A DNA stretch of 64,000 bases from a virus (lineage: Duplodnaviria > Heunggongvirae > Uroviricota > Caudoviricetes): IMG/VR virus record IMGVR_UViG_3300042341_001208; one strand, given 5' to 3'. A model generated the notes under the pieces. The model was not told where the DNA came from, made no database searches, and saw nothing but the letters and a program-made list of their open reading frames with translations. The translations under genes were made by a program, and so were the position numbers. Shown here one piece after another: positions 7,251 through 55,641 of the stretch (positions are counted from its first letter, which is position 1; every line of letters starts with the position of its first letter).

Positions 7251-10200
7251 ATGGCTCAAAAGTATTTGAGCAAAGCTTTGGCTTTCGCTTTAACCTTGTT
7301 TGCAACACAAGGAAATCTTCATGCAGCATGCGGGAATCTCACACCGAGTTTCAGTAATGCATCCAACAAAACCTGTGGTATACCTCAGGTAATTACACTT
7401 ACCAATACTTCCACTGGAAACAGTCGAAATGTAGCCACCTACAAGTGGTATGTGGGTACCACACTGCTGAGCACACAAGTTGGCAAATCCACCCAAAAAT
7501 ACACCATCAACACTGCAGGTAGCTATACCTTCAAGTTGGTGGCGATAGATACGGGTAAGGTGGGCTGTAAAGACAGCACAAGCACTACCATTACCATTTC
7601 GGCATCTGTTCCGAGAATTTTGGATGGCAATAGAGTAAATACCTATTCTCCCATTTGGGAAAATTGTATAAGTTCATTGGGGGTTCCTGACACCTTTGGT
7701 ATAAATATCAAACCTCAGGATTCATTGCGAAATTACACCATAGTTTGGGGGGATGGCACCGGTAATTCTACTGGCACTTTACTGCTTAGCAGCCAATCCC
7801 TCTACCATAAGTATAATTCACTAGGACAATTTACTTTATTAATCATCGGAACAAAGGGAAGTTGCACTGATACCCTTCGAGGTGTGGTGTCGAATGAAAG
7901 AAATCCTGTGGCTGGAATTGTGGGTCCACCAACAGGAACCAATGCAGGTTGTGTGCCCATTCGCATGCGTTTTATCAATAACTCTTCCTTAAGCTCACCT
8001 AGCACCACTTTTACCTGGGATTTTGGCAATGGCGAAACCATAGTAAGGGGATTCAATACCCACAAAGACACTTTATTTTATACCTATAAGCGCTTTTTGT
8101 GTAATGGCATCGTGAAACTTACTCAAACCAATAATTGTGGTTCGAGTTTTGCCACCTGGAACCCAATCATGGCTTCCTCTAAGGATACTGCCATTATTGC
8201 GCCGACCAATCCGACCAACTGCGATCTTGCTGTACCTTTTACGTTTAACAATACCTCTCAAAATCGTTTTTGTAGCACGCCAAACAATAAGAAATACCTC
8301 TGGGTTTGGGGCGACGGAACCAATTCTGGTTGGAGTACTTCTTCTGCTTCGCAGTCTAAAACCTACAGCAAGCGCGGTGTGTACCAGGTCTTGCTGATTG
8401 ATTCAAATGGCTGCGGTAAAGATACTGCAAGGTATACCTTGCGTATCGATAGCATGCCTACCATTTCTGCAGGCCCAGCGTCGGCTGCAGGATGCTCACC
8501 TTTGGTGGTAAACTTCAGAGACAACAGCATAAATGCAACTTCTAGAAATTGGGATTTTGGATATGCAACACCAACAAGCAGTGCGCAAAACCCAACCCAT
8601 ACCTATCAAACAGGTGGTACATATAGAGCAGTGCTGACAGTAGCCAACAATTGTGGATCATTAAAAGATACTGTCCTTATTACTGTCAAACAAAAAGTAA
8701 AGGCAAACTTCAATACACCGCTTACTGGCTGTGCTCCATTAACACAGAAATGGACCAATACATCTGTCAAAGGATTGGCAGGAACCCCTACATATTTCTG
8801 GGATTTTGGGGACGGAACAACTTCTACCCAGGTGAATCCTCCAGATAAAACTTACTCTACGTTAGGGACATATACCATTACACTCATTGCTACAGACTCA
8901 TGCGGTAAGGATACCATTAAAAAGACGTTTACCGTCCGTGGTAAGCCCTCTGCTACAATTACTTTGTTATCTTCAAGCCGGTGTGTGGGCAGCACTTTAG
9001 ATATTCGCTTTGTAACCTCACCCGTAAATACAGCTTCAGTTATCTGGGGTGATGGAACCAATGGCAGCAGTTATTTCGGATTGGGTGGTTCAGTTGACCG
9101 CACGGTTTCCAGAAAATACGACAGTCTGCGCACCTACAGATTTGGGGTAGTTATGGTGGATCCAAGCGGTTGCCGAGACACCAATTACCTAAACATTGCA
9201 ATGGATCCAAGGCCTACGATGAACTATACCTACACCACAACCAATGGTTGTGGTCCTTTGGATGTTACATTTACCAATACCAGTGCGCACAATGGAGGGG
9301 GTAACATCAACCAAATGAAGTTCTTATGGAACTTTAGTAATGGTATATTGGCTTACAGCAAAGATACTGCAGCTAGGTTCTTGCCGTTTAAAACAAGAGA
9401 CTCTATTTATCCCGTTAAATTAATTGGAACAAACGCCTTTGGCTGCAGAGATTCCATTACCAAAACGGTTCGAGTTTATCCAAAACCATTGAGTAAATTT
9501 AGTATTAGTGAAAAGGATGGTTGTGCACCTTTGGATATTACTACTACGAACAATTCTACTCCATATGACACGGGTTCTATAAACATAATGAAGTTTATAT
9601 GGGACTTTGGCAACGGCAGGAAAGCGTTTGGTAAAGATACTGCTGCTCGATTCTTAGCCAGTAAAACAAAAGATACTGTGTATACTGTTAGTCTGATATC
9701 TATTTCTGAACATGGTTGCCGAGATACCAGTTCAACCACAGTGCGTATTTATCCAAAACCTAAAGCCTTATTTACCAGAAGTAAAACTGAAGGTTGCAAA
9801 CCACTCGGGGTTACCTATGTCAACCAAAGTGTACCCTACGATACCGGCAATATATCAATAATGAGTTTTGCTTGGGATTTAGGAAATAGAATTACCTCAT
9901 TCGCTACAGAACCTGTGGGTATCTATAATGATGCGATAAACAAAGATACTACTTATAAGGTACGTTTGATTGCCACTAGTGAGCACGGATGCAAGGATAC
10001 TGCAAATTCCACTGTACTGTTACATCCGAATCCGGTGATTAAATTTGATATGAGCCGCACCAATGGCTGCGGTCCATTGCCTGTGAGCTTCTCGAACAAG
10101 AGCATCAACGGCGATGCATTTACTTGGGAGTTTGGCGTATATGGAACTGATACCGCAAAGAGTCCTAGTAAGGTATTCTATGGCCGCGATATTTTTGACT

Positions 10201-12344
10201 CAGTAGTAGTGGTGAAGCTTAGCGCGATGAGCAAATTTGGCTGCTTGAGTGATACGCTAAAAGACGAAGTGACGGTTTTTGGATTACCTATTGCCAACTA
10301 TCTAGTTTCAACAGATACCTTCTGTTTCCCTGACCTGACGCAGTTTTTGAACCAAAGTTTGGCTTCCTACAACTACACTTGGGATTTGGGCGATGGCACT
10401 GTAACAGGAACTACAAACCCCAAACATTTCTTCAAGAAAAGCTCAAGTCCATTTAGTGATACTACCTATTTCATCAAACTTGTTGCTACAAGCCCTTACG
10501 GATGTAAGGACACCGCAAACGGCAGTATGACCGTATTGCCTTACCCTATTCCAAAATTCAGTGTTGACAATCCTGCGGGTTGTGCGTCACACACAGTGAA
10601 GTTCAACAACCAGTCGGTAAACGTGTTGAATTACCTGTGGGTATTTGGAGATGGATATACATCAACCGATGTGAACCCTACCCATACCTTTATAAATACC
10701 GGTGCGAATGATACGGCGTATCAGGTTGTTCTTTATACCTACTCTTTGGATTGTGTAGACTCTACTAGTATTTGGATACCAGTTTACAAGCCCTCGTATT
10801 CATTCTTCAGAACGGACCGGGTAAATCCATGTGATGCTGGATATTTTAAATTCCAGAGCTTTGGCGAAAATGCGCCAATTGTGAAGTACAATTTTGGTGA
10901 TGGTAGCACATCAACTTTTCCCAACCTAACGCATTTATTCCCAACCTCACCTTACACCGATACAAGCTTCATCGTTACACTATACACCACAAGCAATCGC
11001 GGTTGCACAGACAGCTTTAAACGCACAGTTACGCTCCCACAGCGACTTTCTATCGGAATGAAAGACACCAGTTATGCGCTATGTGCTCCGACGGTAATTC
11101 AGTTTACAAACTACACAAGGGGTGCACGCACATATATTTGGGACTTTGGAGATAATGGAGGAAGTTCTCAGAAGAACCCAATTTATGAATACCAAAAACC
11201 GGGCTTATACGCATATAAGTTGTTTGCCTTTGACGCAAATGGGTGTATTGACAGTCAGGTTTCAAACGGCACTGTTCGTGTGGATGTGAGTCCTAAAGCG
11301 GATTTTGACTTTAGTCCTGGTAAAGGCCGCATGCCAAATGACAACCGTATTTTCTTTACTGACAAGAGCCGCAGTGTGATACCACTGACCTATTTCTGGG
11401 ATTTCTCGGATCCAGCGGGTATACCTGCAACGAGTACGATTCAAAATGCAACCCACGATTTTAGCGACTCTGGAGACTATAAAATCTGTTTGACGGTAGA
11501 TAATGGGGGTTGTAAGAATATATTTTGCAATTTTGTACGCATCGATCCGGCATTTCCAACCCCAGATTTCTCGGTGGGTGGGGATTCGGGTTGCCCACCT
11601 CTTACCGTGCAGTTTACCAACCTTTCTGTGAACTCTGACCGCTATATATGGTTCTTTGGTGACGGTGAAAGAAGCGAGGACAAAGACCCAGTCCATACCT
11701 ATAAGTACAGCGGATATTACGACGTGATTTTGATCGCAAAAGGTCCAGGGGGTGAGGGTAAAACGGAGAAGAAGCAGTTCATAAAAGTATTGAATGCACC
11801 ATTCACGTATTTCAATCTCACGCCCTCTATATTGTACCTTCCTGATGCCAAATTCACAACTCGAAACCTGACTACTGGAGCTGTAGGATATCAGTGGAAT
11901 GTGTACAACAGCAGCACTAGAAATCGAGTTGGGAATAGCCTTTTGGTGAATCCCTATTTCCAAGTAAACGATACGGGGCATTATGATGTGGAATTGATTT
12001 CAGTAAGCAGTCAGGTCTGTTATGATACCCTATTGTTGCCCAAGCCCATCTACGTGAATCCACGTGGCATATTGCATGTACCGGATGCCTTCACACCTAC
12101 CAATGATGAACGCAACGATGTGTTTAAACCAAGCGCGATAAACGTGCAAAAGGATTTCTATCTCTTCCAGATCTATAACAGATGGGGTGAAATCGTATTC
12201 GAAACCAAAGACCCCGATGAGGGTTGGGACGGCCGTAAAAAGGGCAAAATATGCCAAAGTGGAGTCTATGTATATAAAATCAATGCAAGACTCTTCAGCG
12301 GGGATGATATTTCAGCGGATGGTGTGGTTCACTTGATTCGATAG
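7251..12344 (+). CDS. giant secreted PKD-repeat protein with T9SS (gliding-motility-type) C-terminal sorting domain
   Basis: Signal peptide MAQKYLSKALAFALTLFATQGNLHAAC; at least 12 PKD-like repeats (GC.PL.V.F.N.S...W.FGDGT...NP.H.Y...G.Y.V.L.A...GC.DT); C-terminus LHVPDAFTPTNDERNDVFKP...YNRWGEIVFET...GWDG...GVYVY matches CHU_C/T9SS type-B CTD; TAG stop. Confidence 0.8.
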   Translation: MAQKYLSKALAFALTLFATQGNLHAACGNLTPSFSNASNKTCGIPQVITLTNTSTGNSRNVATYKWYVGTTLLSTQVGKSTQKYTINTAGSYTFKLVAIDTGKVGCKDSTSTTITISASVPRILDGNRVNTYSPIWENCISSLGVPDTFGINIKPQDSLRNYTIVWGDGTGNSTGTLLLSSQSLYHKYNSLGQFTLLIIGTKGSCTDTLRGVVSNERNPVAGIVGPPTGTNAGCVPIRMRFINNSSLSSPSTTFTWDFGNGETIVRGFNTHKDTLFYTYKRFLCNGIVKLTQTNNCGSSFATWNPIMASSKDTAIIAPTNPTNCDLAVPFTFNNTSQNRFCSTPNNKKYLWVWGDGTNSGWSTSSASQSKTYSKRGVYQVLLIDSNGCGKDTARYTLRIDSMPTISAGPASAAGCSPLVVNFRDNSINATSRNWDFGYATPTSSAQNPTHTYQTGGTYRAVLTVANNCGSLKDTVLITVKQKVKANFNTPLTGCAPLTQKWTNTSVKGLAGTPTYFWDFGDGTTSTQVNPPDKTYSTLGTYTITLIATDSCGKDTIKKTFTVRGKPSATITLLSSSRCVGSTLDIRFVTSPVNTASVIWGDGTNGSSYFGLGGSVDRTVSRKYDSLRTYRFGVVMVDPSGCRDTNYLNIAMDPRPTMNYTYTTTNGCGPLDVTFTNTSAHNGGGNINQMKFLWNFSNGILAYSKDTAARFLPFKTRDSIYPVKLIGTNAFGCRDSITKTVRVYPKPLSKFSISEKDGCAPLDITTTNNSTPYDTGSINIMKFIWDFGNGRKAFGKDTAARFLASKTKDTVYTVSLISISEHGCRDTSSTTVRIYPKPKALFTRSKTEGCKPLGVTYVNQSVPYDTGNISIMSFAWDLGNRITSFATEPVGIYNDAINKDTTYKVRLIATSEHGCKDTANSTVLLHPNPVIKFDMSRTNGCGPLPVSFSNKSINGDAFTWEFGVYGTDTAKSPSKVFYGRDIFDSVVVVKLSAMSKFGCLSDTLKDEVTVFGLPIANYLVSTDTFCFPDLTQFLNQSLASYNYTWDLGDGTVTGTTNPKHFFKKSSSPFSDTTYFIKLVATSPYGCKDTANGSMTVLPYPIPKFSVDNPAGCASHTVKFNNQSVNVLNYLWVFGDGYTSTDVNPTHTFINTGANDTAYQVVLYTYSLDCVDSTSIWIPVYKPSYSFFRTDRVNPCDAGYFKFQSFGENAPIVKYNFGDGSTSTFPNLTHLFPTSPYTDTSFIVTLYTTSNRGCTDSFKRTVTLPQRLSIGMKDTSYALCAPTVIQFTNYTRGARTYIWDFGDNGGSSQKNPIYEYQKPGLYAYKLFAFDANGCIDSQVSNGTVRVDVSPKADFDFSPGKGRMPNDNRIFFTDKSRSVIPLTYFWDFSDPAGIPATSTIQNATHDFSDSGDYKICLTVDNGGCKNIFCNFVRIDPAFPTPDFSVGGDSGCPPLTVQFTNLSVNSDRYIWFFGDGERSEDKDPVHTYKYSGYYDVILIAKGPGGEGKTEKKQFIKVLNAPFTYFNLTPSILYLPDAKFTTRNLTTGAVGYQWNVYNSSTRNRVGNSLLVNPYFQVNDTGHYDVELISVSSQVCYDTLLLPKPIYVNPRGILHVPDAFTPTNDERNDVFKPSAINVQKDFYLFQIYNRWGEIVFETKDPDEGWDGRKKGKICQSGVYVYKINARLFSGDDISADGVVHLIR

Positions 12345-12410: not shown

Positions 12411-12761
12411 ATGGCAATAAAATACAAAGAGTTTAAAAAGAAATTACAAAACGAACCCCTAACCGAAGAGGAATTAACCATTATTCAGGAGACAGAAGAT
12501 TATATTGACTCTGAAATTCTAAACCAATTTCCGAAGAGCAATTACGGAGAGGTTCTAATTGATTTGACTTATCCGTCTTTTACCTACTCTCATCAAAGAG
12601 GTTCTTTGATGGACTCAAATTCATATAGAAGATCCTTGATGAGATCCGAATTAGAAAAAAGATACAAATCAGCCGGATGGAAGATAGAGGTTAAATTCGA
12701 CGATGGACTGGATGGACCTAATATGTCCGGTCCAGATTATTGGATATTAAAAGGAAAGTAG
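12411..12761 (+). CDS. hypothetical protein
   Basis: 116-aa ORF; promoter motif 7 nt upstream. Confidence 0.45.
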   Translation: MAIKYKEFKKKLQNEPLTEEELTIIQETEDYIDSEILNQFPKSNYGEVLIDLTYPSFTYSHQRGSLMDSNSYRRSLMRSELEKRYKSAGWKIEVKFDDGLDGPNMSGPDYWILKGK

Positions 12762-12771
12762 GACCGTATAT
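12762..12771 (+). promoter_or_regulatory. GACCGTATAT promoter-like motif
   Basis: gGACCGTATATttataaaaataacaatATG, 16 nt upstream of prs start 12788. Confidence 0.5.
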
Positions 12772-12787
12772 TTATAAAAATAACAAT

Positions 12788-13690
12788 ATGTTACAATTAA
12801 ATTTAGCAGACTCAGATAAGTCACAGATCAAATTTAAACCATCTGCATTTCCAGACGGCCAGCAATCAATCACTTTAGCTCTGTCCACAATCTCAGATCT
12901 AGAAATATCTTGCACAATCAAGTCCAGATTAAATTCTTTCAGGGATTTAGAACTCATAGTCTGCGCAGCAGCTGCATTGAGAGAAGCTGGAATGGAAAGA
13001 ATTCACCTTTATATTCCATACTGTCTAGGCGGAAGATCTGACATCAAATTTGAAGAAGGTGGCTTAAACTACATCAAGAGTGTAATTGCACCTATCATCA
13101 ATTTACAAAAATTTACTTCTGTTACCGTCATGGATGCTCACTCGATAGCTCTAGAAAATTGCATTGATAATTTGAAAAAGCTAGACAATTCTTATCTTGC
13201 AAAATGGGCAATCAAGGATCTATCTTCAGAAGGAGGAGATTTCAAATTGGTCTCTCCTGATGCTGGAGCACTAAAGAAAATATTCTCAACAGCTAAATCT
13301 ATCGGATATAAAGGAGAAATAATAGTTGCTGAAAAAGTTAGAGATTTATCTACCGGAAAAATTATTCACACCAAGGTACCTATAAACGTTTATGATGCAG
13401 ATAAAGATTTTATCATTATAGATGATATCTGTGACGGTGGGAGAACATTCATAGAAATCGCCAAGGCTATAGAAGAAATGAGATCTTTAAGTTCAGTGGT
13501 TCATCCAGATAAGCACGGAAAAAATTACCTTATCGTAACTCACGGCATCTTCAGCGCAGGATTTGAAGAACTTAGTAAATATTTTGATAGAATTTATACC
13601 ACCAATTCTATCTCCGAAATAAACGAGTCTGAAAATTACAAAGGTGCTGAATTTGATAAACAATTTGTTAAACAACTAAACGTATTCTAA
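12788..13690 (+). CDS. prs: ribose-phosphate pyrophosphokinase (PRPP synthetase)
   Basis: Start set to ATG 12788 just after the promoter motif; motifs VTVMDAHS, KLVSPDAGALKK, IIIDDICDGGRTF (PRTase-type PRPP loop), LIVTHGIFS. Confidence 0.75.
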   Translation: MLQLNLADSDKSQIKFKPSAFPDGQQSITLALSTISDLEISCTIKSRLNSFRDLELIVCAAAALREAGMERIHLYIPYCLGGRSDIKFEEGGLNYIKSVIAPIINLQKFTSVTVMDAHSIALENCIDNLKKLDNSYLAKWAIKDLSSEGGDFKLVSPDAGALKKIFSTAKSIGYKGEIIVAEKVRDLSTGKIIHTKVPINVYDADKDFIIIDDICDGGRTFIEIAKAIEEMRSLSSVVHPDKHGKNYLIVTHGIFSAGFEELSKYFDRIYTTNSISEINESENYKGAEFDKQFVKQLNVF

Positions 13691-13691
13691 A

Positions 13692-14165
13692 ATGAAAGAA
13701 ACACTAGAATTGAGAATGTATGGATTAGTTCCATATAACTTAAGCCCCATCCAGCAAGGGATCCAATTTGGACACGCAGTTGTTGAGTATGGGTTAACCC
13801 ATTTCGGAGAAAAAAATTACCGGGATTGGGCTAACAATCATAAGACCTTTATCATTCTCAATGGAGGGACTACTAATAATTCCATAGATAAAGAAACAGG
13901 AAATCCAAAAGGAACTTTAAATCAGCATGCGGTAAACCTTAGAGATATGGGGATTCCTTTTTGCACCTTTTATGAGCCTGACTTAGGGGATCAATTAACA
14001 GCAGTAGTTTTTCTAGTAGACGAACATGTCTTCAACAGAGAAAAATATCCGGATCCAAGAGATCCATTTAATCAGGATTGGGCTTGGTCTGAGCATCTTA
14101 GCACAGAAGAACTTTCTAGAGTTTTGCAAATGAGAGACTTTTTAAAACAATTTAGATTAGCATAA
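13692..14165 (+). CDS. PTH2-like (peptidyl-tRNA hydrolase 2 family) protein, divergent
   Basis: LRMYGLVPYNLSPIQQGIQFGHAV and FYEPDLGDQLTAVVFL parallel the KMILVVRNDL...AAQCSHA and DAG..T.l.igP segments of PTH2; paralog of the TAG-containing ORF at 25811. Confidence 0.4.
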   Translation: MKETLELRMYGLVPYNLSPIQQGIQFGHAVVEYGLTHFGEKNYRDWANNHKTFIILNGGTTNNSIDKETGNPKGTLNQHAVNLRDMGIPFCTFYEPDLGDQLTAVVFLVDEHVFNREKYPDPRDPFNQDWAWSEHLSTEELSRVLQMRDFLKQFRLA

Positions 14166-14686
14166 TGGAATCATACTCAGAAATAGAAGGAGATTTAATC
14201 TCATTAGCAAAGCAAGGTAAATTTGAAGTTATCACCCATGGATGTAATTGCAGATCCCAAATGGGAGCAGGGATTGCACCACAAATGGCAAAAGCATTTG
14301 GATGCGATAAATTCGAAATGGAAACTTGGGGTCCAACTATCGAAAAATTAGGCTGCATAGATTATGAAACTGTAGTTCTAGGAGAAAATGCAATCTGGAG
14401 TCTTCTGGATGCTAAAAATAACCGAAACGAACCTGAATTGGCCGTTGTTAATTCTTACACCCAAAACTACTACGGAAAGAATCACTCAGATGGGGTTTCC
14501 AAACCTTTAGACTACGAGGCTTTAACCCTTTGCATGAGGAAGATCAATTCTACCTTTAGAGGCAAACACATAGGAATGCCAAAAATAGGAGCAGGATTAG
14601 CTGGAGGAGATTGGAACAGAATAAAAAAAATCATACAGACCGAATTAAAAGACTGTAAAGTAACTATAGTAATATACAACAAATAA
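14165..14686 (+). CDS. macrodomain protein, TARG1/OARD1/DarG-like (Macro_2 type)
   Basis: GDLISLAKQGKFEVITHGCNCRSQMGAGIAPQMAKAFG matches the GDLF...SLAHCIS.D..MGAGIA..F...FG signature of TARG1-type ADP-ribose hydrolases. Confidence 0.6.
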   Translation: MESYSEIEGDLISLAKQGKFEVITHGCNCRSQMGAGIAPQMAKAFGCDKFEMETWGPTIEKLGCIDYETVVLGENAIWSLLDAKNNRNEPELAVVNSYTQNYYGKNHSDGVSKPLDYEALTLCMRKINSTFRGKHIGMPKIGAGLAGGDWNRIKKIIQTELKDCKVTIVIYNK

Positions 14687-14706
14687 ATTAAATAAAATAA
14701 AATATC

Positions 14707-15066
14707 ATGGACAATCAAATTGATGAAATGACCGGAACCTTGGAAGAAATGAAAGGTGCATTCGTAGGCTCTTTAGTGCGTAACAACAAAAAGATCCGCG
14801 AAGACAGAGCAATCGCAATCGCAGAAGCTGCTCAAATGCTCTACAAAAGAAAAGTTGAGGACACAGAATTAGCTATTAAACAGCTAAAAAGAGAAAGAGA
14901 ATCTATGTTAGACCTTAGTCCAACAACAGCAGATTCTTTGGTAATGGCTTCAGATTTTGACGCAGAAGCTTTCATCCAAAAGGATGTAGAGATCGGTCTC
15001 AAAATTAGAAATTTAGAGATCACTCTAGAAATTGCAAGAACTCGTTACAACCACTTATTTGAATAA
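14707..15066 (+). CDS. coiled-coil hypothetical protein
   Basis: 119 aa, heptad-like charged/hydrophobic pattern. Confidence 0.4.
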   Translation: MDNQIDEMTGTLEEMKGAFVGSLVRNNKKIREDRAIAIAEAAQMLYKRKVEDTELAIKQLKRERESMLDLSPTTADSLVMASDFDAEAFIQKDVEIGLKIRNLEITLEIARTRYNHLFE

Positions 15067-15071
15067 TCCGT

Positions 15072-15953
15072 ATGGGAAATTCAAGTTATTCTACCTATAA
15101 TAGATCCATCAGATCCGAATCTTTTGGCTATCATAGCAAATCAAGAAACGAGATCTTTACCCAAAGTAAAGAGGGTAAAGCTCACGAGCAAATGAGACCT
15201 AAAGGAATCGTCTACAGAGAATGTAGAGATTCCGAGGCTCACCCGAATGCTACCCCGATTCAGCTTTATTTGGACGTTACCGGAAGCATGGGACATATTC
15301 CCCACGAAATGATTAAAGACGGTTTACCAACTTTAATGGGGAATCTAATTCAAAGAGGTGTAGAGGATGCTTCCCTTATGTTTGGAGCTATCGGTGACCA
15401 CGAATGTGACAAATCACCTCTCCAAGTTGGACAGTTTGAATCTGGTGACGAAGAATTGGACATGTGGCTTACCAGAACCTGGCTCGAAGGCGGAGGTGGT
15501 GGAAACGGCGGAGAAAGCTATCCATTAGCTTGGTATTTCGCAGGAAATCACGTTGCAACAGATGCTTGGGAGAAGAGAAACCAAAAAGGATTCGTATTCA
15601 CTATCGGTGATGAGCCTTTCCTTAATTCTCTACCAATGTCTGCAGTAAAGGAAATCATGGGGGATTCAGCATCAGGCCAATCTACTTGGGATGCTACAGT
15701 TCTTCTAGAACAAGCTCAAAAGACAAATCACGTTTTCCATATCTTCTTAGAACATGGTTACAGAAAAGTTGATTCGGCTTGGAAAGAATTAATGGGAGAT
15801 CACCTTATAGTTGCAAAAGACTATAAAGATATCCCGAAAATTATCTCAGAAACAATTTTAACTATTCAAGGGGAAAGAAAACCTTCTGAGAATGCGACCG
15901 TATATTCTAGTAATACTACAGATGAAAAAGACTCTGTAGATATTATCCTATAA
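15072..15953 (+). CDS. von Willebrand factor A (vWA) domain protein
   Basis: MIDAS-like LYLDVTGSMG (DxSxS) then Rossmann-like layout; Gly-rich loop EGGGGGNGGE. Confidence 0.55.
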   Translation: MGNSSYSTYNRSIRSESFGYHSKSRNEIFTQSKEGKAHEQMRPKGIVYRECRDSEAHPNATPIQLYLDVTGSMGHIPHEMIKDGLPTLMGNLIQRGVEDASLMFGAIGDHECDKSPLQVGQFESGDEELDMWLTRTWLEGGGGGNGGESYPLAWYFAGNHVATDAWEKRNQKGFVFTIGDEPFLNSLPMSAVKEIMGDSASGQSTWDATVLLEQAQKTNHVFHIFLEHGYRKVDSAWKELMGDHLIVAKDYKDIPKIISETILTIQGERKPSENATVYSSNTTDEKDSVDIIL

Positions 15954-17011
15954 TGAATACGAGCAAAATAGTAATTGGACTAAACTACGGAGACGAAGGA
16001 AAGGGGTTAACCACCTCTTTCCTCTGTTCCCAATCTAAAAATCCCATCGTTGTTAGATTCAACGGGGGTCACCAAGCAGGTCACACAGTATCCTTCAAAG
16101 GAAAAAGACATGTGTTTTCTAGCTTTGGATCAGGAACACTTCAAAAAGTTCCAACGTACTGGAGCAAATATTGCACATTCTCTCCGACAGCATTTCTAAA
16201 TGAATTAAAATTTCTACTGGATAAATCTTTAAAATTCCCAGGATTTTATCTTGATCCTTTATGTCCAATCACAACACCTTACGATTTATACAGCAACCGA
16301 AAAGATTCCCAGAATGTGAGTCATGGAACAGTCGGGGTAGGATTTGGATCAACTCTTAAAAGACACGAAAACTTTTATAAGCTTTATGCACAGGATATGT
16401 TCTATCCAGAAGTCTTCAAAGCAAAATTAGAAAACATTGCTAAGTATTACGGAATGGAGGATCTCGAAATCGATAACTTTTTAGAAGACGTAACAATTGT
16501 AACTACTATAGTTCAATTGACAAATGAAAAAGTTCTTTTAAATTATTCAGATGCTATATTTGAAGGGGCTCAAGGGGTTCTTTTAGATATGGATTTTGGA
16601 TTTTTTCCAAACGTTACCAGATCTAATACAACATCTAAAAATGCACTGGAAATTTCTCCTCTGCATTCAAACGAAATCTACTACATCACAAGATCTTATT
16701 TAACTAGACACGGAGCTGGATTTCTTCCAGGAGAAAAAGAACTTCCCCTAATTAATAATGAATTGGAGACAAACGTCTCTCATGAATACCAAGGAAATTT
16801 TAGAACAGCAGATTTAGATTTGGATCTTCTAAACTATTCTTTAAAATGTGACTCTCATTTTTCTGAGGGTCAAACCAAAAATCTAGTAATTACCTGCATG
16901 GATCAATATCCAATAGATGTAGAAAAATTGCTAGAAAAATTAGAAATTAAATTCAATAAAGTGTTCGTCTCTTACGGGGATTCACTTGATAAAATACAAC
17001 AATTAAAATGA
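15953..17011 (+). CDS. short adenylosuccinate synthetase homologue (PurA family; PurZ candidate)
   Basis: GDEGKG P-loop (IGLNYGDEGKGL), GGHQAGHTV, EGAQGVLLDMDFGFFPNVTRSNTT, TRHGAGFLPGE; 352 aa, shorter than bacterial PurA (about 430 aa), like archaeal PurA and phage PurZ. Confidence 0.7.
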   Translation: MNTSKIVIGLNYGDEGKGLTTSFLCSQSKNPIVVRFNGGHQAGHTVSFKGKRHVFSSFGSGTLQKVPTYWSKYCTFSPTAFLNELKFLLDKSLKFPGFYLDPLCPITTPYDLYSNRKDSQNVSHGTVGVGFGSTLKRHENFYKLYAQDMFYPEVFKAKLENIAKYYGMEDLEIDNFLEDVTIVTTIVQLTNEKVLLNYSDAIFEGAQGVLLDMDFGFFPNVTRSNTTSKNALEISPLHSNEIYYITRSYLTRHGAGFLPGEKELPLINNELETNVSHEYQGNFRTADLDLDLLNYSLKCDSHFSEGQTKNLVITCMDQYPIDVEKLLEKLEIKFNKVFVSYGDSLDKIQQLK

Positions 17012-17481
17012 AAATAACAGAAAAATATGTCTTCTTTTGGAACGGGATTTATTCTCAGTGGCACAAAGCAAAAATGACAATCGACGGTGTTGAGTATAGC
17101 TCTTGTGAGCAATATATGATGCATCAAAAAGCTATCGTCTTCAGCGACTTTTATATTGCATCTCAGATACTTCTGACAGAGAATCCGAAAGAGCAAAAAG
17201 CACTCGGAAGACAAATTCAAGGGTTTGATAAAAACATTTGGGATTCGGTTTGCTTGAGCATAGTCTATAAAGGAAATCTAGCTAAATTTTCTCAAAATGA
17301 GGATCTAAAATCAGATCTTCTTTCCACCGAGAATAGAATCCTGGTAGAAGCTTCACCCTTGGATCAAATTTGGGGAATTGGAATGGCAGAGGATCATCCA
17401 AATATAGAATCTCCAGAACACTGGAGGGGACTGAACTTGCTTGGATGGGCGTTAAACTTAGTAAAAAAAGAATTAAATTAA
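17008..17481 (+). CDS. NADAR (YbiA/DUF1768) domain protein
   Basis: FFWNGIYSQW...IDGVEYSSCEQYMMHQKA...KALGRQIQ...IWD...KFSQNEDLKSDLLSTENRILVEASPLDQIWGIGM matches NADAR family conserved blocks. Confidence 0.65.
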   Translation: MKITEKYVFFWNGIYSQWHKAKMTIDGVEYSSCEQYMMHQKAIVFSDFYIASQILLTENPKEQKALGRQIQGFDKNIWDSVCLSIVYKGNLAKFSQNEDLKSDLLSTENRILVEASPLDQIWGIGMAEDHPNIESPEHWRGLNLLGWALNLVKKELN

Positions 17482-17721
17482 ATGAAAAGTACAGAATTTG
17501 CATATTGGTTACAAGGGTTCTTCGAACTTAGCGAAACTAACACCTTGTCGGAAAGACAGGTCGAAACTATTAAAAATCATTTGAAGCTGGTTTTCTATCA
17601 TGAGATAGATCCTTCCTATTCTACAGATCCTGTAGTACAGGAAACCATGCAAAAAATTCACGACGGAGAACCTCAAAAGAGAACTCCGAGAAATTCTAAC
17701 CCAAGAACTATAAAATGTTAA
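17482..17721 (+). CDS. hypothetical small protein (tandem paralog A)
   Basis: AYWLQGFFEL...RQVETIKNHLKLVFYHE parallels next gene. Confidence 0.4.
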   Translation: MKSTEFAYWLQGFFELSETNTLSERQVETIKNHLKLVFYHEIDPSYSTDPVVQETMQKIHDGEPQKRTPRNSNPRTIKC

Positions 17722-17984
17722 CCATGGAAGAAACAAGAAATTTTGTTATCTGGCTTGATGGATTTCTAGAAGCTTGCGGGCCAACTCCAACTAAGGAGCA
17801 GGTCGAAAAAATAAAATCCAGGCTGAATGGAATTTTTGAGCATGTTGCAGAAATCCCAGCTAAGGAGAACGAAAAACCGTCTCTAGAGGAATTAGGACAA
17901 GAACATGGATTTAATGTATATCCCGGATTTCCTGGATCAGGATTTCCTTTTAGAGATGAAGGTGGTGGTTTATTAAGATGCTAA
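17715..17984 (+). CDS. hypothetical small protein (tandem paralog B)
   Basis: FVIWLDGFLEAC...KEQVEKIKSRLNGIFEHV parallels the previous gene; Gly/Pro-rich tail. Confidence 0.4.
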   Translation: MLTMEETRNFVIWLDGFLEACGPTPTKEQVEKIKSRLNGIFEHVAEIPAKENEKPSLEELGQEHGFNVYPGFPGSGFPFRDEGGGLLRC

Positions 17985-18329
17985 ATGAGTAGAGTAATTT
18001 ATATAGCTTCTCCTTATTCTAATCCCGACCCTGATGTTACCGAGGAGAACTTTAAAAAAGTCTCGAGGCTTGCGGCTAAGCTTTGCTCAGAGGGTCAGGT
18101 TGCAATTTCCCCTATTACTTATGGTCACACGCTGGTTGGATTTAAACCAATGCCAATTGACTGGCCATTCTGGGAGAATTTTTGTCTTTCCATTCTCCAG
18201 GCTTGTGACGAAATCATAGTTTATAAAATGGAAGGTTGGGATAGATCGAGAGGTGTTGCAGAAGAGGTCGAATTTGCCAGAAGAAAAGGAATCCAGATCA
18301 CGTATATGGAATATGATCCTTCTATCTAA
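17985..18329 (+). CDS. nucleoside 2-deoxyribosyltransferase-like (DUF4406-type) protein
   Basis: VIYIASPYS...GQVAISP...DEIIVYKMEGWDRSRGVAEEVEFARRKG pattern of the Ndt/DNPH1-like flavodoxin-fold family. Confidence 0.45.
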   Translation: MSRVIYIASPYSNPDPDVTEENFKKVSRLAAKLCSEGQVAISPITYGHTLVGFKPMPIDWPFWENFCLSILQACDEIIVYKMEGWDRSRGVAEEVEFARRKGIQITYMEYDPSI

Positions 18330-18337
18330 CCGTATAT
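18328..18337 (+). promoter_or_regulatory. GACCGTATAT-family motif (AACCGTATAT)
   Basis: 17 nt upstream of ATG 18355. Confidence 0.45.
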
Positions 18338-18354
18338 TTAAATAAAATACCTTT

Positions 18355-18798
18355 ATGGAATTAAGAGAATATTTCGAAACAAATCCGGACTCTATCCCTT
18401 ATCTAGAAAGACTAGAAAGTGAATGGGAACAGTATGGAAAGATAATCATCGGATGTGATTATGACGACACAATTTCCCCATGGAAGATGGAGAATTTTAA
18501 TCCAGAAAGGGTTCTAGAAGTTCTAAAGGTTGCTAGAGAAACCGGAGCTTACATCGTAATCTTTACTTCTTGTGACAAAGCAAGATATCCAGAAATCGAA
18601 GACTATTGTAAAAGCATTGGCCTCACAATCGACTCGATCAATAAAAATCCAATCGACTTACCTTACGGTAAAAAAGGTAAAATCTATGCCAACATTTTCC
18701 TGGATGACAGAGGTGGAATGAATGAATCCCTAAACATTCTAGAAATGGCAACGTATAGAATTAGAGGAAAAAGAAGAGTTTTAGGAATCAACGTATAA
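18355..18798 (+). CDS. HAD-superfamily phosphatase-like protein
   Basis: Motif I IIIGCDYDDTI (DxDxT), motif III-like NIFLDDRGG; promoter motif upstream. Confidence 0.45.
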   Translation: MELREYFETNPDSIPYLERLESEWEQYGKIIIGCDYDDTISPWKMENFNPERVLEVLKVARETGAYIVIFTSCDKARYPEIEDYCKSIGLTIDSINKNPIDLPYGKKGKIYANIFLDDRGGMNESLNILEMATYRIRGKRRVLGINV

Positions 18799-18806
18799 TT
18801 AAGAAA

Positions 18807-18971
18807 ATGAAAATGAACCCAAAAGAAAAAGAATTGGAAAATATCCAATCCCAACAAAACCCTTCAAAAGAGGTTAATCCAACCGAGTCTGTAATAATAA
18901 AACAGATCGAGGATGATTTTGAATATCAAGAATATTATTCAGAAAATTCTCCTAATTTCGACGTAGATTAA
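18807..18971 (+). CDS. possible small acidic ORF (54 aa), not in supplied track
   Basis: ATG..TAA ORF MKMNPKEKELENIQSQQNPSKEV... fills the gap before the NAMPT promoter; coding status uncertain. Confidence 0.25.
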   Translation: MKMNPKEKELENIQSQQNPSKEVNPTESVIIKQIEDDFEYQEYYSENSPNFDVD

Positions 18972-18978
18972 TCAGGAG

Positions 18979-18988
18979 GACCGTATAT
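18979..18988 (+). promoter_or_regulatory. GACCGTATAT promoter-like motif
   Basis: gGACCGTATATtcaataaaataataaat, 20 nt upstream of nadV ATG 19009. Confidence 0.5.
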
Positions 18989-19008
18989 TCAATAAAATAA
19001 TAAATATT

Positions 19009-20538
19009 ATGTTTAAATGTAATTCACTATTCTACACAGACGGCTACAAAATTGGCCACAAAAGAATGCTAGCACCAGGAACAACTCGTTTATACGGAAC
19101 CTGGATTCCACGAAGTATTAAACACGCTCCAAAAGGAGTTAAAAAAATCGTATCGTTTGGCCAGCAACTAGCTGTTAAATGGTTACACGATGAATTCGAA
19201 GAAAATTTCTTCAAGCTTCCTTTAGAAGAAGCAATGGAATTCGGAAATGATATGGCAATGTATCTCGGCCTCGAGTATGATGCTTCTCATTTCGAAGCTC
19301 TCCACAAATTAGGTTACTTGCCTATCAAAGTTAAATCTTTACCAGAAGGTATCGAAACTCTTCCAAATGTTCCACACATGACCTTCATTAATACCGTGGA
19401 TGGATTTGCTTGGTTAACCCTTTATTTGGAAACCATCATCTCTTCATTAGCTTGGAAGCCTTCAACATCAGCTACAATCGCTTTACAGTACAAAAGAAAC
19501 CTGATCGAATGGGTAAGAAAAACAGACCCTAAAAACATCTGGTTAGTTCCTTTCCTAGCTCACGACTTCTCGGCTAGAGGTTTGTCTCCTTGGGACATGT
19601 TAGCAAGCGGTTTAGGACACGCTACATCATTCAGAGGTTCAGACACAATAGTTTGTATCCCAGCAGCTCGATACTTCTACAACGAGCCTAAAAACGAGGT
19701 CTGCATCAATTCTGTAAACGCTTCAGAACACTCAGTATCTACCACCAAAATTTTCACAGTCGGCGAACAACAAATGATAGCAGACTGGTTAAGAGAATTC
19801 GACAAAGGTATCCTTTCAATCGTTTCAGACACATTCGATTTATGGACACTAATCACCAAATATTTACCTGCCAACAAAGAGGCTATCATGGCCAGAGACG
19901 GTAAATTGGTTATCAGACCTGACTCAGGAGACCCAGTAGATATTATTTGCGGATTAGAAAATAAAGTTCTTGAGGAAGGAGTGGGATATAAAGAAGAATA
20001 CAAAGAAAGCCCAGAATACAAAGGAGTTATCGAATTACTTTGGGACATCTTCGGAGGTACAATCAACGAAGAAGGTTACAAAGTACTTGATCCTCACATC
20101 GGAGCAATCTACGGGGACTCTATTACCTTGGACAGACAAATCCAAATCTACGAAAGATTAGCAGCTAAAGGATTTGCAACTACCAATATCGTTTTAGGTA
20201 TCGGTTCTTACACCTACCAAATGAACACCAGAGACACCTTAGGCTTCGCAGCTAAAGGAGCATGGTTCGAAGTAGAAGAAAACGGTACTAAAGTAGGCTA
20301 CGACATCTACAAAGATCCTATCACAGACGATGGAACTAAGAAATCCTTAAAAGGACTTATTAGAGTCGATGAAGTTTCAGTAACTTCCGAGGAAACTGGA
20401 ATTACTTATACTAAGTATGAAGTAAAAACCCAATGTACCCCAGAACAAGAAGAAGGAGGCATCTTACAAACCATCTACGAAAATGGTAAATTCTACAATC
20501 AAACTACATTAACTGAAGTTAGATCAAAATTAAACTAA
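19009..20538 (+). CDS. nadV: nicotinamide phosphoribosyltransferase (NAMPT/NadV)
   Basis: LFYTDGYKIGH (TDSYK motif), LPIKVKSLPEGIETLPNVP, HDFSARGLS, FRGSDTI, VSDTFDLW, IRPDSGDPVD, GAIYGDSITLD all parallel NAMPT blocks. Confidence 0.85.
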   Translation: MFKCNSLFYTDGYKIGHKRMLAPGTTRLYGTWIPRSIKHAPKGVKKIVSFGQQLAVKWLHDEFEENFFKLPLEEAMEFGNDMAMYLGLEYDASHFEALHKLGYLPIKVKSLPEGIETLPNVPHMTFINTVDGFAWLTLYLETIISSLAWKPSTSATIALQYKRNLIEWVRKTDPKNIWLVPFLAHDFSARGLSPWDMLASGLGHATSFRGSDTIVCIPAARYFYNEPKNEVCINSVNASEHSVSTTKIFTVGEQQMIADWLREFDKGILSIVSDTFDLWTLITKYLPANKEAIMARDGKLVIRPDSGDPVDIICGLENKVLEEGVGYKEEYKESPEYKGVIELLWDIFGGTINEEGYKVLDPHIGAIYGDSITLDRQIQIYERLAAKGFATTNIVLGIGSYTYQMNTRDTLGFAAKGAWFEVEENGTKVGYDIYKDPITDDGTKKSLKGLIRVDEVSVTSEETGITYTKYEVKTQCTPEQEEGGILQTIYENGKFYNQTTLTEVRSKLN

Positions 20539-20550
20539 AAAAATCGGTAT

Positions 20551-20580
20551 CACCGGGGGGTTTCCCCGGTGACCGTATAT
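20551..20580 (+). promoter_or_regulatory. GC-rich stem-loop (CACCGGGG-ggttt-CCCCGGTG) fused to GACCGTATAT motif
   Basis: Perfect 8-bp hairpin 20551-20571 whose last base is the first base of the motif (20571-20580); 33 nt upstream of ATG 20614; no U tract, so not a canonical terminator. Confidence 0.45.
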
Positions 20581-22640: not shown

Positions 22641-23120
22641 ATGGCAAAAGTAATCAAACCAACAGACTCAGATCAAGAAGTAGAATTTTATCCGGCAGTA
22701 TTTTTAGCAGGATCCATCGAAATGGGAAAAGCTGAAGACTGGCAAAAAACAGTTGAGAAAGAATTAGAAAAATTAGACGTTACAATTTTTAATCCTAGAA
22801 GAGATGACTGGGATAGCTCATGGACTCAAGAGCAATCTAATCCACAATTTAATCATCAGGTTAATTGGGAGTTGAACAAATTGGAAAGATGTGATGCCAT
22901 CTTCATGTACTTCTCTCCAGAAACACAATCTCCAATATCTCTACTAGAACTAGGAAGATATTCCACATACGGAAAAATGATTGTTTGTTGTCCTAAAGGA
23001 TTCTGGAGAAAAGGAAACGTAGATATCCTTTGCACCAGAGAAAATATTCCAGTATTTGAGGATCTACAATCTGCTATCGGGGCTTTGAAAACTAGAATCA
23101 ACCAACAAATAATAGATTAA
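22641..23120 (+). CDS. nucleoside 2-deoxyribosyltransferase-like (Nuc_deoxyri_tr2/DNPH1-like) protein
   Basis: AVFLAGSIEMG...W...IFNP...YFSPETQSPISLLELGRYSTYGKMIVCCPKGFWRKGNVDILC matches the family layout. Confidence 0.5.
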   Translation: MAKVIKPTDSDQEVEFYPAVFLAGSIEMGKAEDWQKTVEKELEKLDVTIFNPRRDDWDSSWTQEQSNPQFNHQVNWELNKLERCDAIFMYFSPETQSPISLLELGRYSTYGKMIVCCPKGFWRKGNVDILCTRENIPVFEDLQSAIGALKTRINQQIID

Positions 23121-23648: not shown

Positions 23649-24380
23649 ATGTTTAAATTTTATGAAGTTGGAGGAAAAATAAGAGACGAAATTTTAGAAT
23701 TATCTTCTAAAGATGTTGATTATGTAGCAGTTCCGAAAGAAGAATTACTAGATACAGTTGAGAAGGCAGAAGATATGTTCAGCATGTTAGAATCTTTTCT
23801 AAGAGTAGAAAAATTTGAGATCTTCTTGGTAACCCCAGACTGTTTTACAATTAGAGCAAAATTCCCAGCAGGACACAAATACTCAGGGGTTGCAGACTTT
23901 GTAATGGCCAGAAAGGAAATTGGTTATATTCCAGGAACTAGAACCCCAATTGTTAAGCCGGGAACCCTATTTGACGATCTTCAGAGAAGAGATTTTACCC
24001 TAAACGCTTTAGCAAAAGACGAGGACGGAACCATAATCGATTTCTTTGGAGGAATAGAGGATCTAAAGAAAAACCGTTTAAAAACTCCACTAGACTGCAA
24101 AATAACTTTTGATGACGATCCGCTTAGAATTCTTAGGGCCATCAGATTTTGTATAACTAAAGGGTTTTGGATTGGACCCTATATGGACGGGGTAATTCAG
24201 GATTACGACTACGAAGGAAAAATGGGGGTAGTTTCTATGGAGAGAATAAGAGAAGAATTGTTCAAATGTTTCAAACACGATACATTAAAAACCCTCAAAA
24301 CACTTCACGAATACCCAGCCCTAAGAAACTACATTTTTGAAAAAAATACACTTTGGTTAAAACCCACAATGGAGCAATAA
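23649..24380 (+). CDS. tRNA nucleotidyltransferase (CCA-adding enzyme/poly(A) polymerase family) head-neck domain
   Basis: YEVGGKIRDEIL..SKDVDYV (GGxVRD..D.D) and RRDFTLNALAKDEDGTIIDFFGGIEDL...DDPLRILRAIRF are class-II CCA-enzyme signatures; only 243 aa (minimal form). Confidence 0.7.
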   Translation: MFKFYEVGGKIRDEILELSSKDVDYVAVPKEELLDTVEKAEDMFSMLESFLRVEKFEIFLVTPDCFTIRAKFPAGHKYSGVADFVMARKEIGYIPGTRTPIVKPGTLFDDLQRRDFTLNALAKDEDGTIIDFFGGIEDLKKNRLKTPLDCKITFDDDPLRILRAIRFCITKGFWIGPYMDGVIQDYDYEGKMGVVSMERIREELFKCFKHDTLKTLKTLHEYPALRNYIFEKNTLWLKPTMEQ

Positions 24381-24385
24381 AATAT

Positions 24386-31433: not shown

Positions 31434-31769
31434 ATGAATCAAACAGTAAACCTACTTAAGACCGGATCCGAATATATTTTAGCTCTTCCGAGAGGGAAAA
31501 GACTAGAAAAAGGAGATTTTGCAATAGGGGTGTCCAACTCTTATTCAAAGGTTTCTTCTGTTAAAGAAGGGGATTATTTTGATGCTAGAATTTACTATCT
31601 TGAAGATGGTAGCTGTCTAGTAAACCCAATTAAAATTGTGGGATTTGAATCCGATATAGATCCAGAGGTTCTAACAAAAATAAAGGAACTTAAAGAAGTT
31701 CCTTTGTATATCGAGATCGTAGAAAACCAGATCGTTCGTGAATCTGGTAAGATTAAAGTTATTTATTAA
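31434..31769 (+). CDS. hypothetical protein
   Basis: 111-aa ORF; last + gene before strand switch. Confidence 0.4.
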   Translation: MNQTVNLLKTGSEYILALPRGKRLEKGDFAIGVSNSYSKVSSVKEGDYFDARIYYLEDGSCLVNPIKIVGFESDIDPEVLTKIKELKEVPLYIEIVENQIVRESGKIKVIY

Positions 31770-33746: not shown

Positions 33747-33756
33747 TAGCTAGAAA

Positions 33757-48568: not shown

Positions 48569-48569
48569 G

Positions 48570-49253: not shown

Positions 49254-49269
49254 TAATATATAAAATAAA

Positions 49270-49833: not shown

Positions 49834-49855
49834 TGAACAACCCCCGAAATAAGAT

Positions 49856-52873: not shown

Positions 52874-52876
52874 ATT

Positions 52877-53617: not shown

Positions 53618-53621
53618 AAAT

Positions 53622-55629: not shown

Positions 55630-55641
55630 AAATAAAAAATC

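Follow-up and report, generated by a model that had tools for sequence, protein, structure and literature searches.

What are a macrodomain gene and a NADAR gene doing close together in a phage genome, in the company of enzymes of nicotinamide adenine dinucleotide (NAD) metabolism? The question is raised by a 64,000-nucleotide stretch of viral DNA (IMG/VR record IMGVR_UViG_3300042341_001208; the whole stretch is referred to here as the window), for which a first-pass annotation had picked out a macrodomain open reading frame (ORF) at 14165..14686 and a NADAR ORF at 17008..17481 and proposed that together they reverse the ADP-ribosylation of DNA by DarT-type toxins. Both ORFs are present on the + strand, the former encoding a 173 amino acid protein with the motifs quoted for it (EGDLI..ITHGCNC..MGAGIA..FG). 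On the basis of sequence homology and gene neighbourhoods, we consider that the region is probably an expanded NAD+ reconstitution pathway 1 (NARP1) counter-defence operon, in which the macrodomain and NADAR proteins would act as accessories that free ADP-ribose, with an unrelated cassette of genes lying between them.

NAD+ depletion is among the commonest of bacterial anti-phage strategies. NARP1 consists of two enzymes, Adps and Namat, that rebuild NAD+ from ADP-ribose (ADPR) and nicotinamide. A macrodomain protein, Adpp, is carried by 15% of NARP1 operons and takes the phosphate off ADPR-1''-phosphate (ADPR-1''-P), which RES-type NADases produce, to leave ADPR, allowing NARP1 to overcome RES defence; the operon tested, NARP1-AP from Vibrio phage Gary, has the structure Adps-Adpp-Namat (Osterman et al., bioRxiv 10.64898/2026.01.28.702374).

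The first-pass annotation had placed the macrodomain and NADAR genes in a NAD-salvage island with prs and nadV. NAD genes are indeed there, but from their sequences we identify 'prs' and 'nadV' as homologues of the NARP1 enzymes Adps and Namat, and their annotations need correcting to these. The Adps-like protein scores 128 bits against the Adps of a phi92-like phage and 96 bits against that of phage Gary (31% identity), compared to no more than 50 bits against solved phosphoribosyl pyrophosphate (PRPP) synthetases, and it falls under all of the curated PRPP synthetase cut-offs; a DDICDGGRTF motif and a K-V-R-D hairpin are common to this protein and phage Adps. The Namat-like protein matches the structures of SpbetaL1 Namat (9W5X and 9W5W; PMC12774641) with an E value of 2e-113, as against ~1e-40 for canonical Nampt, and is 42% identical to Gary Namat.

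The genes from 12411 to 20538 all lie on the + strand, with gaps of no more than 37 nt or small overlaps between them. The features of this island are as follows:

Starting at 12411, + strand: ORF of 116 amino acids, the first gene of the co-directional run.
12763..12771, + strand: promoter-like motif ACCGTATAT upstream of Adps.
12788..13690, + strand: Adps-like enzyme with PRPP synthetase fold (putative ADP-ribose pyrophosphokinase of NARP1), from similarity to phage Adps.
13692..14165, + strand: PHROG 3668 protein of 157 amino acids, labelled 'hydrolase' (PHROG match 1e-17).
14165..14686, + strand: macrodomain protein of SCO6735/BT1257 type, 173 amino acids, from PHROG, PDB and Foldseek matches and similarity to Gary Adpp.
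14707..15066, + strand: coiled-coil-like ORF of 119 amino acids (g119) that accompanies the vWA-like/PurA-like cassette.
15072..15953, + strand: von Willebrand factor A (vWA)-fold protein of 293 amino acids, PHROG 2971, from Foldseek and a MIDAS-type motif.
15953..17011, + strand: divergent PurA-fold ligase (PF00709, 2e-41).
17008..17481, + strand: NADAR (YbiA-fold) protein of 157 amino acids, a Glu-type 'naked' core (PF08719, 170.5 bits).
17482..17984, + strand: two small paralogous ORFs of 79 and 89 amino acids (PHROG 35763/28500).
17985..18329, + strand: DUF1937 protein with a nucleoside 2-deoxyribosyltransferase-like fold (PF09152, 1e-19).
18355..18798, + strand: candidate HAD-like phosphatase (weak NCBIfam match to the BT0820 HAD phosphatase; PHROG 1238).
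Between the HAD-like and Namat-like genes, + strand: ORF of 54 amino acids.
19009..20538, + strand: Namat-like nicotinamide ADP-ribose transferase of the NAPRTase family, 509 amino acids, from its match to SpbetaL1 Namat.

The genes had been described as co-directional with ATGA overlaps. The shared direction holds throughout, but an ATGA overlap is found only at the PurA-like/NADAR junction, two other junctions being one-base TAATG overlaps and the rest short gaps. For the Adps-like gene the ORF list gave a TTG start at 12740; public gene calls begin at the equivalent of the ATG at 12788, which is likely to be the start.

The macrodomain protein had been assigned to the TARG1/DarG type on the strength of a Macro_2 signature. 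The motifs quoted are present, but Pfam Macro_2 (PF14519) is unmatched even at E = 10 and the only Pfam match is to PF01661, at 22.0 bits, exactly at the cut-off of 22; PHROG 335 is matched with an E value of 1e-41. Sequence matches in the PDB are to BT1257, SCO6735, Poa1p, OARD1 and DarG, the best with the family profile being BT1257 (50 bits) and SCO6735 (33 bits), and a Foldseek search with an AlphaFold2 model of moderate confidence (pLDDT 76) returned TARG1 (1.4e-7), BT1257 (1.9e-7), DarG (7.6e-7) and Poa1p (9e-7). The protein belongs to the ALC1/TARG1-like macrodomain class, and to this extent the first-pass assignment stands, but the catalytic Lys/Asp pair is replaced: Gln100, invariant in 36 homologues, occupies the position of TARG1 K84, DarG K80 and SCO6735 Q85 (AdfM of phage PhiKZ has Lys), and the invariant Ala146 that of TARG1 D125 (GAGLAGGDW in the window, GCGLDRLQW in TARG1). 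With Asn28 (the equivalent of SCO6735 N27), Gln100, G144/G147-G148 and the loop from 100 to 114, the protein has the features that define the SCO6735/BT1257 subclass. It reaches just 30.1 bits against the NCBIfam DarG model NF048014 (cut-off 250) and 31.5 bits, over 40 residues, against PADLOC DarG; it is neutral (isoelectric point, pI, 6.8) and, as a single domain, lacks the C-terminal DarT-binding domain of DarG.

Similarity to Gary Adpp (KNV71_gp137) extends over the full length of the macrodomain protein (28% identity over 171 amino acids, 57 bits, E 8e-15), compared to E values of 2e-4 for TARG1 and 0.27, which is not significant, for PhiKZ AdfM. The Gln and the GLAGG pattern of the active site recur in Gary Adpp, a proven phosphatase whose own best PDB match by sequence is TARG1; being 'TARG1-like' therefore does not separate the possible functions. 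From its sequence, the macrodomain protein is most readily interpreted as the counterpart of Adpp in a NARP1-AP operon, an ADPR-1''-phosphate phosphatase, not least because its gene takes up the same position between Adps and Namat as in the proven Adps-Adpp-Namat operon; its being a DarG or AdfM equivalent is disfavoured.

That position is widely conserved. Among 28 non-identical relatives of the macrodomain protein (53-82% identity), whose loci were collected from IMG/VR and public contigs, Adps lies immediately upstream of the macrodomain gene in 22 and Namat within 10 kb of it in 17, with one locus (L109) displaying the exact order Adps-Macro-Namat. In 13 of these 28 loci the PHROG 3668 gene, whose product has no Pfam or NCBIfam match, recurs between Adps and Macro, and it may encode a further NARP1 accessory.

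The identification of 17008..17481 as NADAR was borne out, with a match to PF08719 well above the cut-off of 35.1 bits (E 4.7e-50). The protein is closer to PnNADAR (8BAU; 2e-13, 54 bits) than to E. coli YbiA (30 bits). PnNADAR residues E43, K50, R79, W89, E125, D130 and W133 are kept and R93 is replaced by Cys, seven of the eight ADPR-contact residues being retained. Glu at the subfamily-defining position marks it as a member of the YbiA subfamily, and it scores 152.6 bits against the NCBIfam model TIGR02464 (cut-off 73.7). It is a bare, acidic core (pI 5.6) without the basic extension of DarT1-linked NADARs, and differs from the DarG1 type (BC4488) in having Glu instead of Asp and in lacking the basic N-terminal extension; no ART or DarT genes were seen among the NADAR neighbours. 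Its identity to the NADARs of Vequintavirinae and Stephanstirmvirinae-like coliphages is 35-39% (35% to a Vequintavirinae NADAR). Every NADAR tested hydrolyses guanine-linked ADP-ribose (G-ADPr) in vitro, though protection in vivo is specific (PMC11125620), and orphan phage NADARs counter DarTG1 (PMC11825919). By analogy with these, a role for the window NADAR as a DNA G-ADPr hydrolase is plausible.

Two sets of loci connect NADAR to NARP1. Across 27 NADAR orthologues (at least 59% identity), Adps, Macro or Namat adjoins the NADAR gene in 26 and all three are present in 19; Adps, Macro, NADAR and Namat are four consecutive genes in L122 and L124-L128, and in L132 and L138 the gene order differs with the linkage kept. 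The two small paralogous ORFs that follow NADAR in the window are also found 3' of it in L130, L131, L137 and L142. The second set comprises 78 Adps-centred loci from a profile scan of IMG/VR (a scan with a single sequence gave one locus). Namat is present in 70 of these, a PF15891 deoxyribosyltransferase-like gene in 35, Macro in 31, a HAD-like gene in 18, NADAR in 15, DUF1937 in 11 (and in ten NADAR loci too), a PurA-like gene in one and a vWA-like gene in none. NADAR occurs in 14 of the 31 Macro-positive Adps loci compared to one of the 47 Macro-negative loci (Fisher p 3e-6, a value that ignores phage relatedness), and the NADAR counts are unchanged with a NADAR hidden Markov model (HMM). 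NADAR is found at 15 of 78 Adps loci compared to 4 of 80 PurA-like loci, in keeping with its being a recurrent NARP1 accessory. That Macro and NADAR are a functionally linked pair in a NAD/ADP-ribose counter-defence island is supported.

DUF1937, the HAD-like phosphatase and the PF15891 protein (22641-23120 in the window) recur in the NARP1 clusters of this phage clade (L178-L255), which suggests that there are further accessory steps in ADPR/NAD processing.

The genes between Macro and NADAR tell a different story. A vWA protein and a PurA-like enzyme had been reported there and both are present. The former matches integrin beta-I and vWF A domains in Foldseek (E 3e-6, probability 1.0; model pLDDT 72), with a MIDAS-type D68-x-T70-x-S72 motif invariant in 36 homologues; it has no Pfam or PDB sequence match, and the vWA identity of 15072..15953 holds at the level of the predicted fold. 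Despite its match to PF00709, the PurA-like protein scores 128 bits against the NCBIfam PurA model (cut-off 402) and 40 bits against that of PurZ (NF038379; cut-off 300). Across its family the phosphoryl-transfer residues D13, K16, H41, Q224 and T239 are invariant, the residues that bind the phosphate of inosine monophosphate (IMP; T129, R131 and R143) and aspartate (T300, T301, R303 and R305) are lacking, and an invariant Gln and His of the family's own are found at the T301 and V273 positions. The E. coli PurA sequence used for this mapping agrees with the 1CG3 alignment over residues 4-281. The Asp of GDEGKG is kept in 68 of 68 aligned members, whereas PurZ has Ser in place of PurA D13 (PMC8342488). 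We rejected a PurZ/Z-genome reading on account of this Asp, the low PurZ model score and the absence of PDB PurZ entries from the matches. Judged by these residues and scores, the protein is neither PurA nor PurZ, and the label given to its family by PHROG 1211 and RefSeq (PurZ, or '2-aminooxy adenylosuccinate synthetase') appears to be wrong; with ~240 phage records carrying the label, this matters for the prediction of Z-genome phages.

From the ATGA overlaps the first-pass annotation had inferred co-expression of these genes with Macro and NADAR. We considered the idea that the two are functional partners of Macro and NADAR and discarded it: at all 80 IMG/VR loci found with the PurA-like protein the vWA-like gene sits beside the PurA-like gene, whereas NADAR is present at four (HMM included) and a macrodomain homologue at two, and the pair is absent from the 78 Adps loci. 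The vWA-fold protein and PurA-fold ligase form an obligate two-gene module. Only where a contig is identical to the window (L086-L089) does it separate Macro from NADAR, and the 119 amino acid ORF upstream of the vWA-like gene, which has no family match in Pfam or PHROG, is restricted to three PurA-like loci (L006, L008 and L009) and the window's own contigs. We propose that g119, the vWA-like gene and the PurA-like gene make up a mobile cassette, unrelated to the operon, that has entered it in this phage. The PurA-like family is found in ~240 cultured-phage records, including 202 mycobacteriophages, and the vWA-like protein has more than 4000 homologues with high conservation; examples of the cassette are at loci L006-L085, in Mycobacterium phage Tonenili (L257) and in Vibrio phage phiKT1024 (L258). 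In phiKT1024 (113785-121658), which is among the few cases of a NADAR gene close to this cassette, the NADAR gene precedes the vWA-like/PurA-like genes by ~2.9 kb and a gene for a TROVE-domain protein follows them. Our literature search found nothing on a PurA-like and vWA module as an anti-defence system.

How might the expanded NARP1 operon work? Adps (12788-13690) would pyrophosphorylate free ADP-ribose and Namat (19009-20538) would couple the Adps product to nicotinamide, so that NAD+ destroyed by host NADase defences is rebuilt. The macrodomain protein, acting as an Adpp-type enzyme, would strip the 1''-phosphate from ADPR-1''-P produced by RES-type NADases and thereby supply the substrate for Adps. 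NADAR would cleave an N-glycosidic ADP-ribose adduct, again yielding free ADP-ribose; the adduct could be a soluble N-linked derivative of ADPR or guanine-ADPr on nucleic acid, of the kind that DarT1-like toxins produce. If NADAR acted on G-ADPr DNA in the manner of AdfN, this too would fit the scheme, since ADPR is also released. We infer all of these activities, and the NADAR substrate especially, from homology, active-site residues and synteny; for the macrodomain step there is experimental precedent in a homologue, and for the NADAR step the guides are gene context and the N-glycohydrolase chemistry of the family.

A number of observations weigh against the NARP1 reading. Because the synteny counts take in closely related contigs and phages, they cannot be treated as independent observations. 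Islands also bring together anti-defence genes that do not belong to one pathway. NARP1 neighbours are missing from all 25 of the more distant NADARs (below 52% identity), there is no NARP1 near the closest cultured-phage NADAR (Yersinia phage fHe-Yen9-04, 53% identity) nor near the closest cultured-phage macrodomain, at either end of the record (Cellulophaga phage phi17:2, 49% identity), and in phage W70 the Vequintavirinae NADAR is not adjacent to NARP1. The nearest tested NADAR type (Vequintavirinae, the AdfN-Bas60 group, 35% identity) acts on DNA. At the Namat selectivity-clamp positions R40, F392 and Y396 the window protein has K, Y and M, and the clamp is only partly conserved. Identity between the macrodomain protein and Adpp is only 28%, and the fold search was uninformative as a discriminator between phosphatase and DNA hydrolase, with TARG1, BT1257, DarG and Poa1p scoring alike. 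Nor can the active-site residues tell the two apart, because SCO6735, the nearest solved relative of known function, has an Asn/Gln/Gly site like that of the window protein and removes thymidine-linked ADPr (T-ADPr) from DNA (PMC9411070).

This last point bears on the best-surviving alternative, the dual anti-DarT module of the first-pass annotation, in which the macrodomain protein would remove thymidine-ADPr as AdfM does, NADAR would remove guanine-ADPr as AdfN does, and the NAD genes would be mere neighbours. We regard this as unlikely, though its components are not without merit: the macrodomain is in the ALC1/TARG1-like class, SCO6735 rescues cells from DarT with a Gln-type site, all tested NADARs hydrolyse G-ADPr in vitro, the AdfN proteins of Bas32 and Bas60 counter DarTG1, and the window NADAR keeps its catalytic residues and its similarity to the coliphage proteins noted above. 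The macrodomain protein lacks the catalytic Lys of DarG, TARG1 and AdfM, however, lies nearer to Adpp than to AdfM and scores poorly with the DarG model, whilst both genes are found within Adps...Namat operons across relatives, as is that of the proven phosphatase Adpp; the acidic NADAR, with no DarG1-like basic DNA-binding extension, and the neutral macrodomain protein are weak points in the same direction. What survives of the original proposal is the linked pair and a plausible G-ADPr role for NADAR, which is compatible with the NARP1 reading; what is disfavoured is the macrodomain half and the relegation of the NAD genes to bystanders. Nor would an enzymatic anti-DarT function be new, as had been suggested: AdfN (2025), AdfM (2026) and the co-occurrence and fusion of Macro and NADAR domains (2022) are already published.

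Less probable again is a housekeeping role in RNA repair, with the macrodomain protein (as a Poa1p-like enzyme), and perhaps NADAR, clearing the ADPR 1''-phosphate or cyclic phosphate left when a Tpt1/KptA-type enzyme takes off 2'-phosphates as tRNAs cleaved by the host are repaired. Poa1p is among the PDB and fold matches of the macrodomain protein, the NARP1-AP operons of Vibrio phages Ceto and Gary have RNA ligase genes at their borders, and such a role was proposed for viral Macro and NADAR domains by Iyer et al. (PMC9503650). Just 3' of the island (23649-25656), moreover, is an RNA-repair-like cluster encoding a CCA-adding tRNA nucleotidyltransferase, an RNase T-like exonuclease and a HAD_SAK_2 ('Swiss Army Knife RNA repair') protein. 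Against this, the scanned part of the window ORFs, which was not all of them, turned up no KptA/Tpt1, 2H phosphoesterase or RNA ligase, and the conserved partners of Macro and NADAR are Adps and Namat and not RNA-repair genes. Metabolic housekeeping, with NADAR as a YbiA-type riboflavin-intermediate N-glycosidase, the PurA-like enzyme making (2-amino)adenylosuccinate for a Z-genome and the macrodomain incidental, is very improbable: it draws on the TIGR02464 score ('riboflavin biosynthesis intermediates N-glycosidase'), the YbiA-subfamily Glu and the PurZ label, but NADAR is closer to PnNADAR than to YbiA, no riboflavin genes lie nearby, the PurA-like protein has the Asp and lacks the substrate-binding residues described above, and no DatZ- or MazZ-type match was found among the ORFs scanned.

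Returning to the expanded NARP1 operon, a bolder version can be put forward, rather tentatively. NADAR would be a third 'feeder' of NARP1, after Adpp and RyDEP (see below), hydrolysing an N-glycosidic adduct that a host defence makes from NAD+ (an N-linked cyclic ADPR, a base- or amino-acid-linked ADPR, or ADPr-guanine), and the vWA and PurA-fold pair would be a new system with a substrate other than aspartate or IMP. If this were true, Adps-Macro-NADAR-Namat would be a multi-input NAD+ recycling machine, NADAR-bearing operons would point to undescribed defence chemistry in the hosts, and the vWA and PurA-fold pair would constitute a widespread two-gene phage system.

Clues to how the island is expressed come from a short motif, (G)ACCGTATAT, usually with tt/tcAATAAA right after it. 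There are 11 copies of ACCGTATAT in the window where 0.21 are expected, all of them on the + strand and within the first 26 kb (2548, 3470, 4982, 12395, 12763, 15897, 18329, 18980, 20572, 23163 and 25656), and ten of the 11 are located 7-50 nt upstream of an ATG start. Besides 12763, the island copies are those at 12395, 15897, 18329, 18980 and 20572. The motif looks like a phage-specific promoter or leader element dividing the island into several transcription units. Directly 3' of Namat, at 20549-20573, a GC-rich 10-bp hairpin (CACCGGGGGG TTT CCCCGGTG) is followed by ACCGTATAT; this is the sole strong stem-loop within the island and is likely to mark a unit boundary. A scan for consensus sigma-70 promoters and terminators gave nothing above shuffle expectation.

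Directly upstream of the NAD island, at 7251-12344, is a gene for a 1697 amino acid protein that is rich in PKD repeats and carries a CHU_C domain (type IX secretion sorting) at its C-terminus, an unusual phage cargo that is conserved in identical public contigs. This CHU_C protein indicates a Bacteroidota host, and the phage is a large one that probably infects Bacteroidota. Its assignment as a phage rests on IMG/VR relatives, PHROG matches and gene content; the window ORFs that were scanned yielded no hallmark virion gene, and a nucleotide search of INPHARED with the island gave no match. Homologues of the macrodomain protein number in the thousands in environmental metagenomes (72-100% identity, on contigs of up to 403 kb), and the phage clade is abundant in the environment. 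One such contig is binned as Dolichospermum and one relative as Flavobacteriales, and some contigs of the clade lie in bacterial metagenome-assembled genome bins. Elsewhere in the window, a MoxR-like AAA+ ATPase, a DUF2201_N metallopeptidase-like protein with a KOW motif and a DUF2201 VWA-like protein are encoded on the - strand at 31766-35310, a second vWA-type system that is unrelated to the one at 15072-17011. Glycosyltransferase, aminotransferase (two paralogues, 27% identical) and nucleotide-sugar epimerase genes at 46280-59791 look like a sugar or glycan modification cluster, and there are also genes for a ClpB-like AAA+ protein (40402-42531) and an MTHFR homologue (28780-29739).

Of the known systems, NARP1-AP of phage Gary is the one with which the island is most usefully compared. 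The two have homologous Adps (31%), Adpp (28%) and Namat (42%) proteins, a macrodomain gene between Adps and Namat with the same Gln/GLAGG site and, in the relative L109, the exact three-gene order. They differ in that the window has ~5.3 kb and 11 further genes between Adps and Namat, that NADAR is a recurrent extra member with PHROG 3668, DUF1937, HAD-like and PF15891 proteins as common accessories, and that the window proteins, known from sequence, have low identity to those tested.

AdfN is the name given to the orphan phage NADARs that counter DarTG1, namely T4 gp30.3 and those of Bas32 and Bas60 (PMC11825919). Like these, the window protein is a phage NADAR that stands alone and keeps the catalytic Glu and Lys, and it is ~35% identical to a NADAR from the Vequintavirinae, the subfamily of Bas60, but has Glu at the defining position where T4-type proteins have His and DarG1-type proteins Asp, and has orthologues embedded in NARP1 operons, something not reported for AdfN. 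AdfM (PhiKZ gp104), a DarG2-like macrodomain protein of chimalliviruses that removes DarT2-derived ADP-ribose from DNA (PMC13309987), likewise stands alone in a phage and shares its broad class with the macrodomain of the window; it differs in sequence and in having a catalytic Lys instead of Gln, and is not reported in a NAD+-reconstitution operon (PMC13309987). ICP1 AdfB is a different case, a small protein that binds DarT and is not a macrodomain. The SCO6735/BT1257 subclass (PMC9411070) has equivalents of Asn27, Gln85 and Gly128 and a long mobile loop and, like the window macrodomain, is without the TARG1 Lys84/Asp125 pair; SCO6735 itself is a bacterial, strongly basic, DNA-damage-linked protein that acts on T-ADPr DNA and on proteins, whereas the window protein is neutral and phage-encoded within a NARP1 operon.

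RyDEP, which has the fold of the RyR R12 domain, is encoded within the NARP1 operon of a mycobacteriophage and breaks the O-glycosidic bond that links ribose to ribose in 2'/3' cyclic ADPR (PMC13232231). It offers a parallel for the role proposed here for NADAR, as an operon-embedded enzyme that turns an ADPR-derived defence molecule into ADPR for recycling by NARP1, but its fold is unrelated and NADARs cleave N-glycosidic bonds. Finally, Iyer, Burroughs and Aravind described in 2022 the non-random co-occurrence of Macro and NADAR domains and Macro-NADAR-SLOG neighbourhoods and fusions in DNA viruses and large phages (PMC9503650); their work came before NARP1 and makes no connection between the pair and Adps or Namat. 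When the full-text literature was searched for NADAR and NARP1 in combination, just one paper came up, in which NADAR is named once and in passing; the RyDEP preprint, which deals with enzymes embedded in NARP1 operons, is silent on NADAR (PMC13232231). By gaining accessory enzymes, NARP1 operons widen the range of NAD+ breakdown products that can be recycled. The regular presence of a Macro-linked NADAR in the NARP1 operons of a large environmental phage clade offers a testable prediction for a widespread group of phage NADARs, and possibly a handle on undiscovered host defence chemistry. As far as our literature search shows, the recurrent Adps-Macro-NADAR-Namat operon is a previously undescribed variant of a known system.

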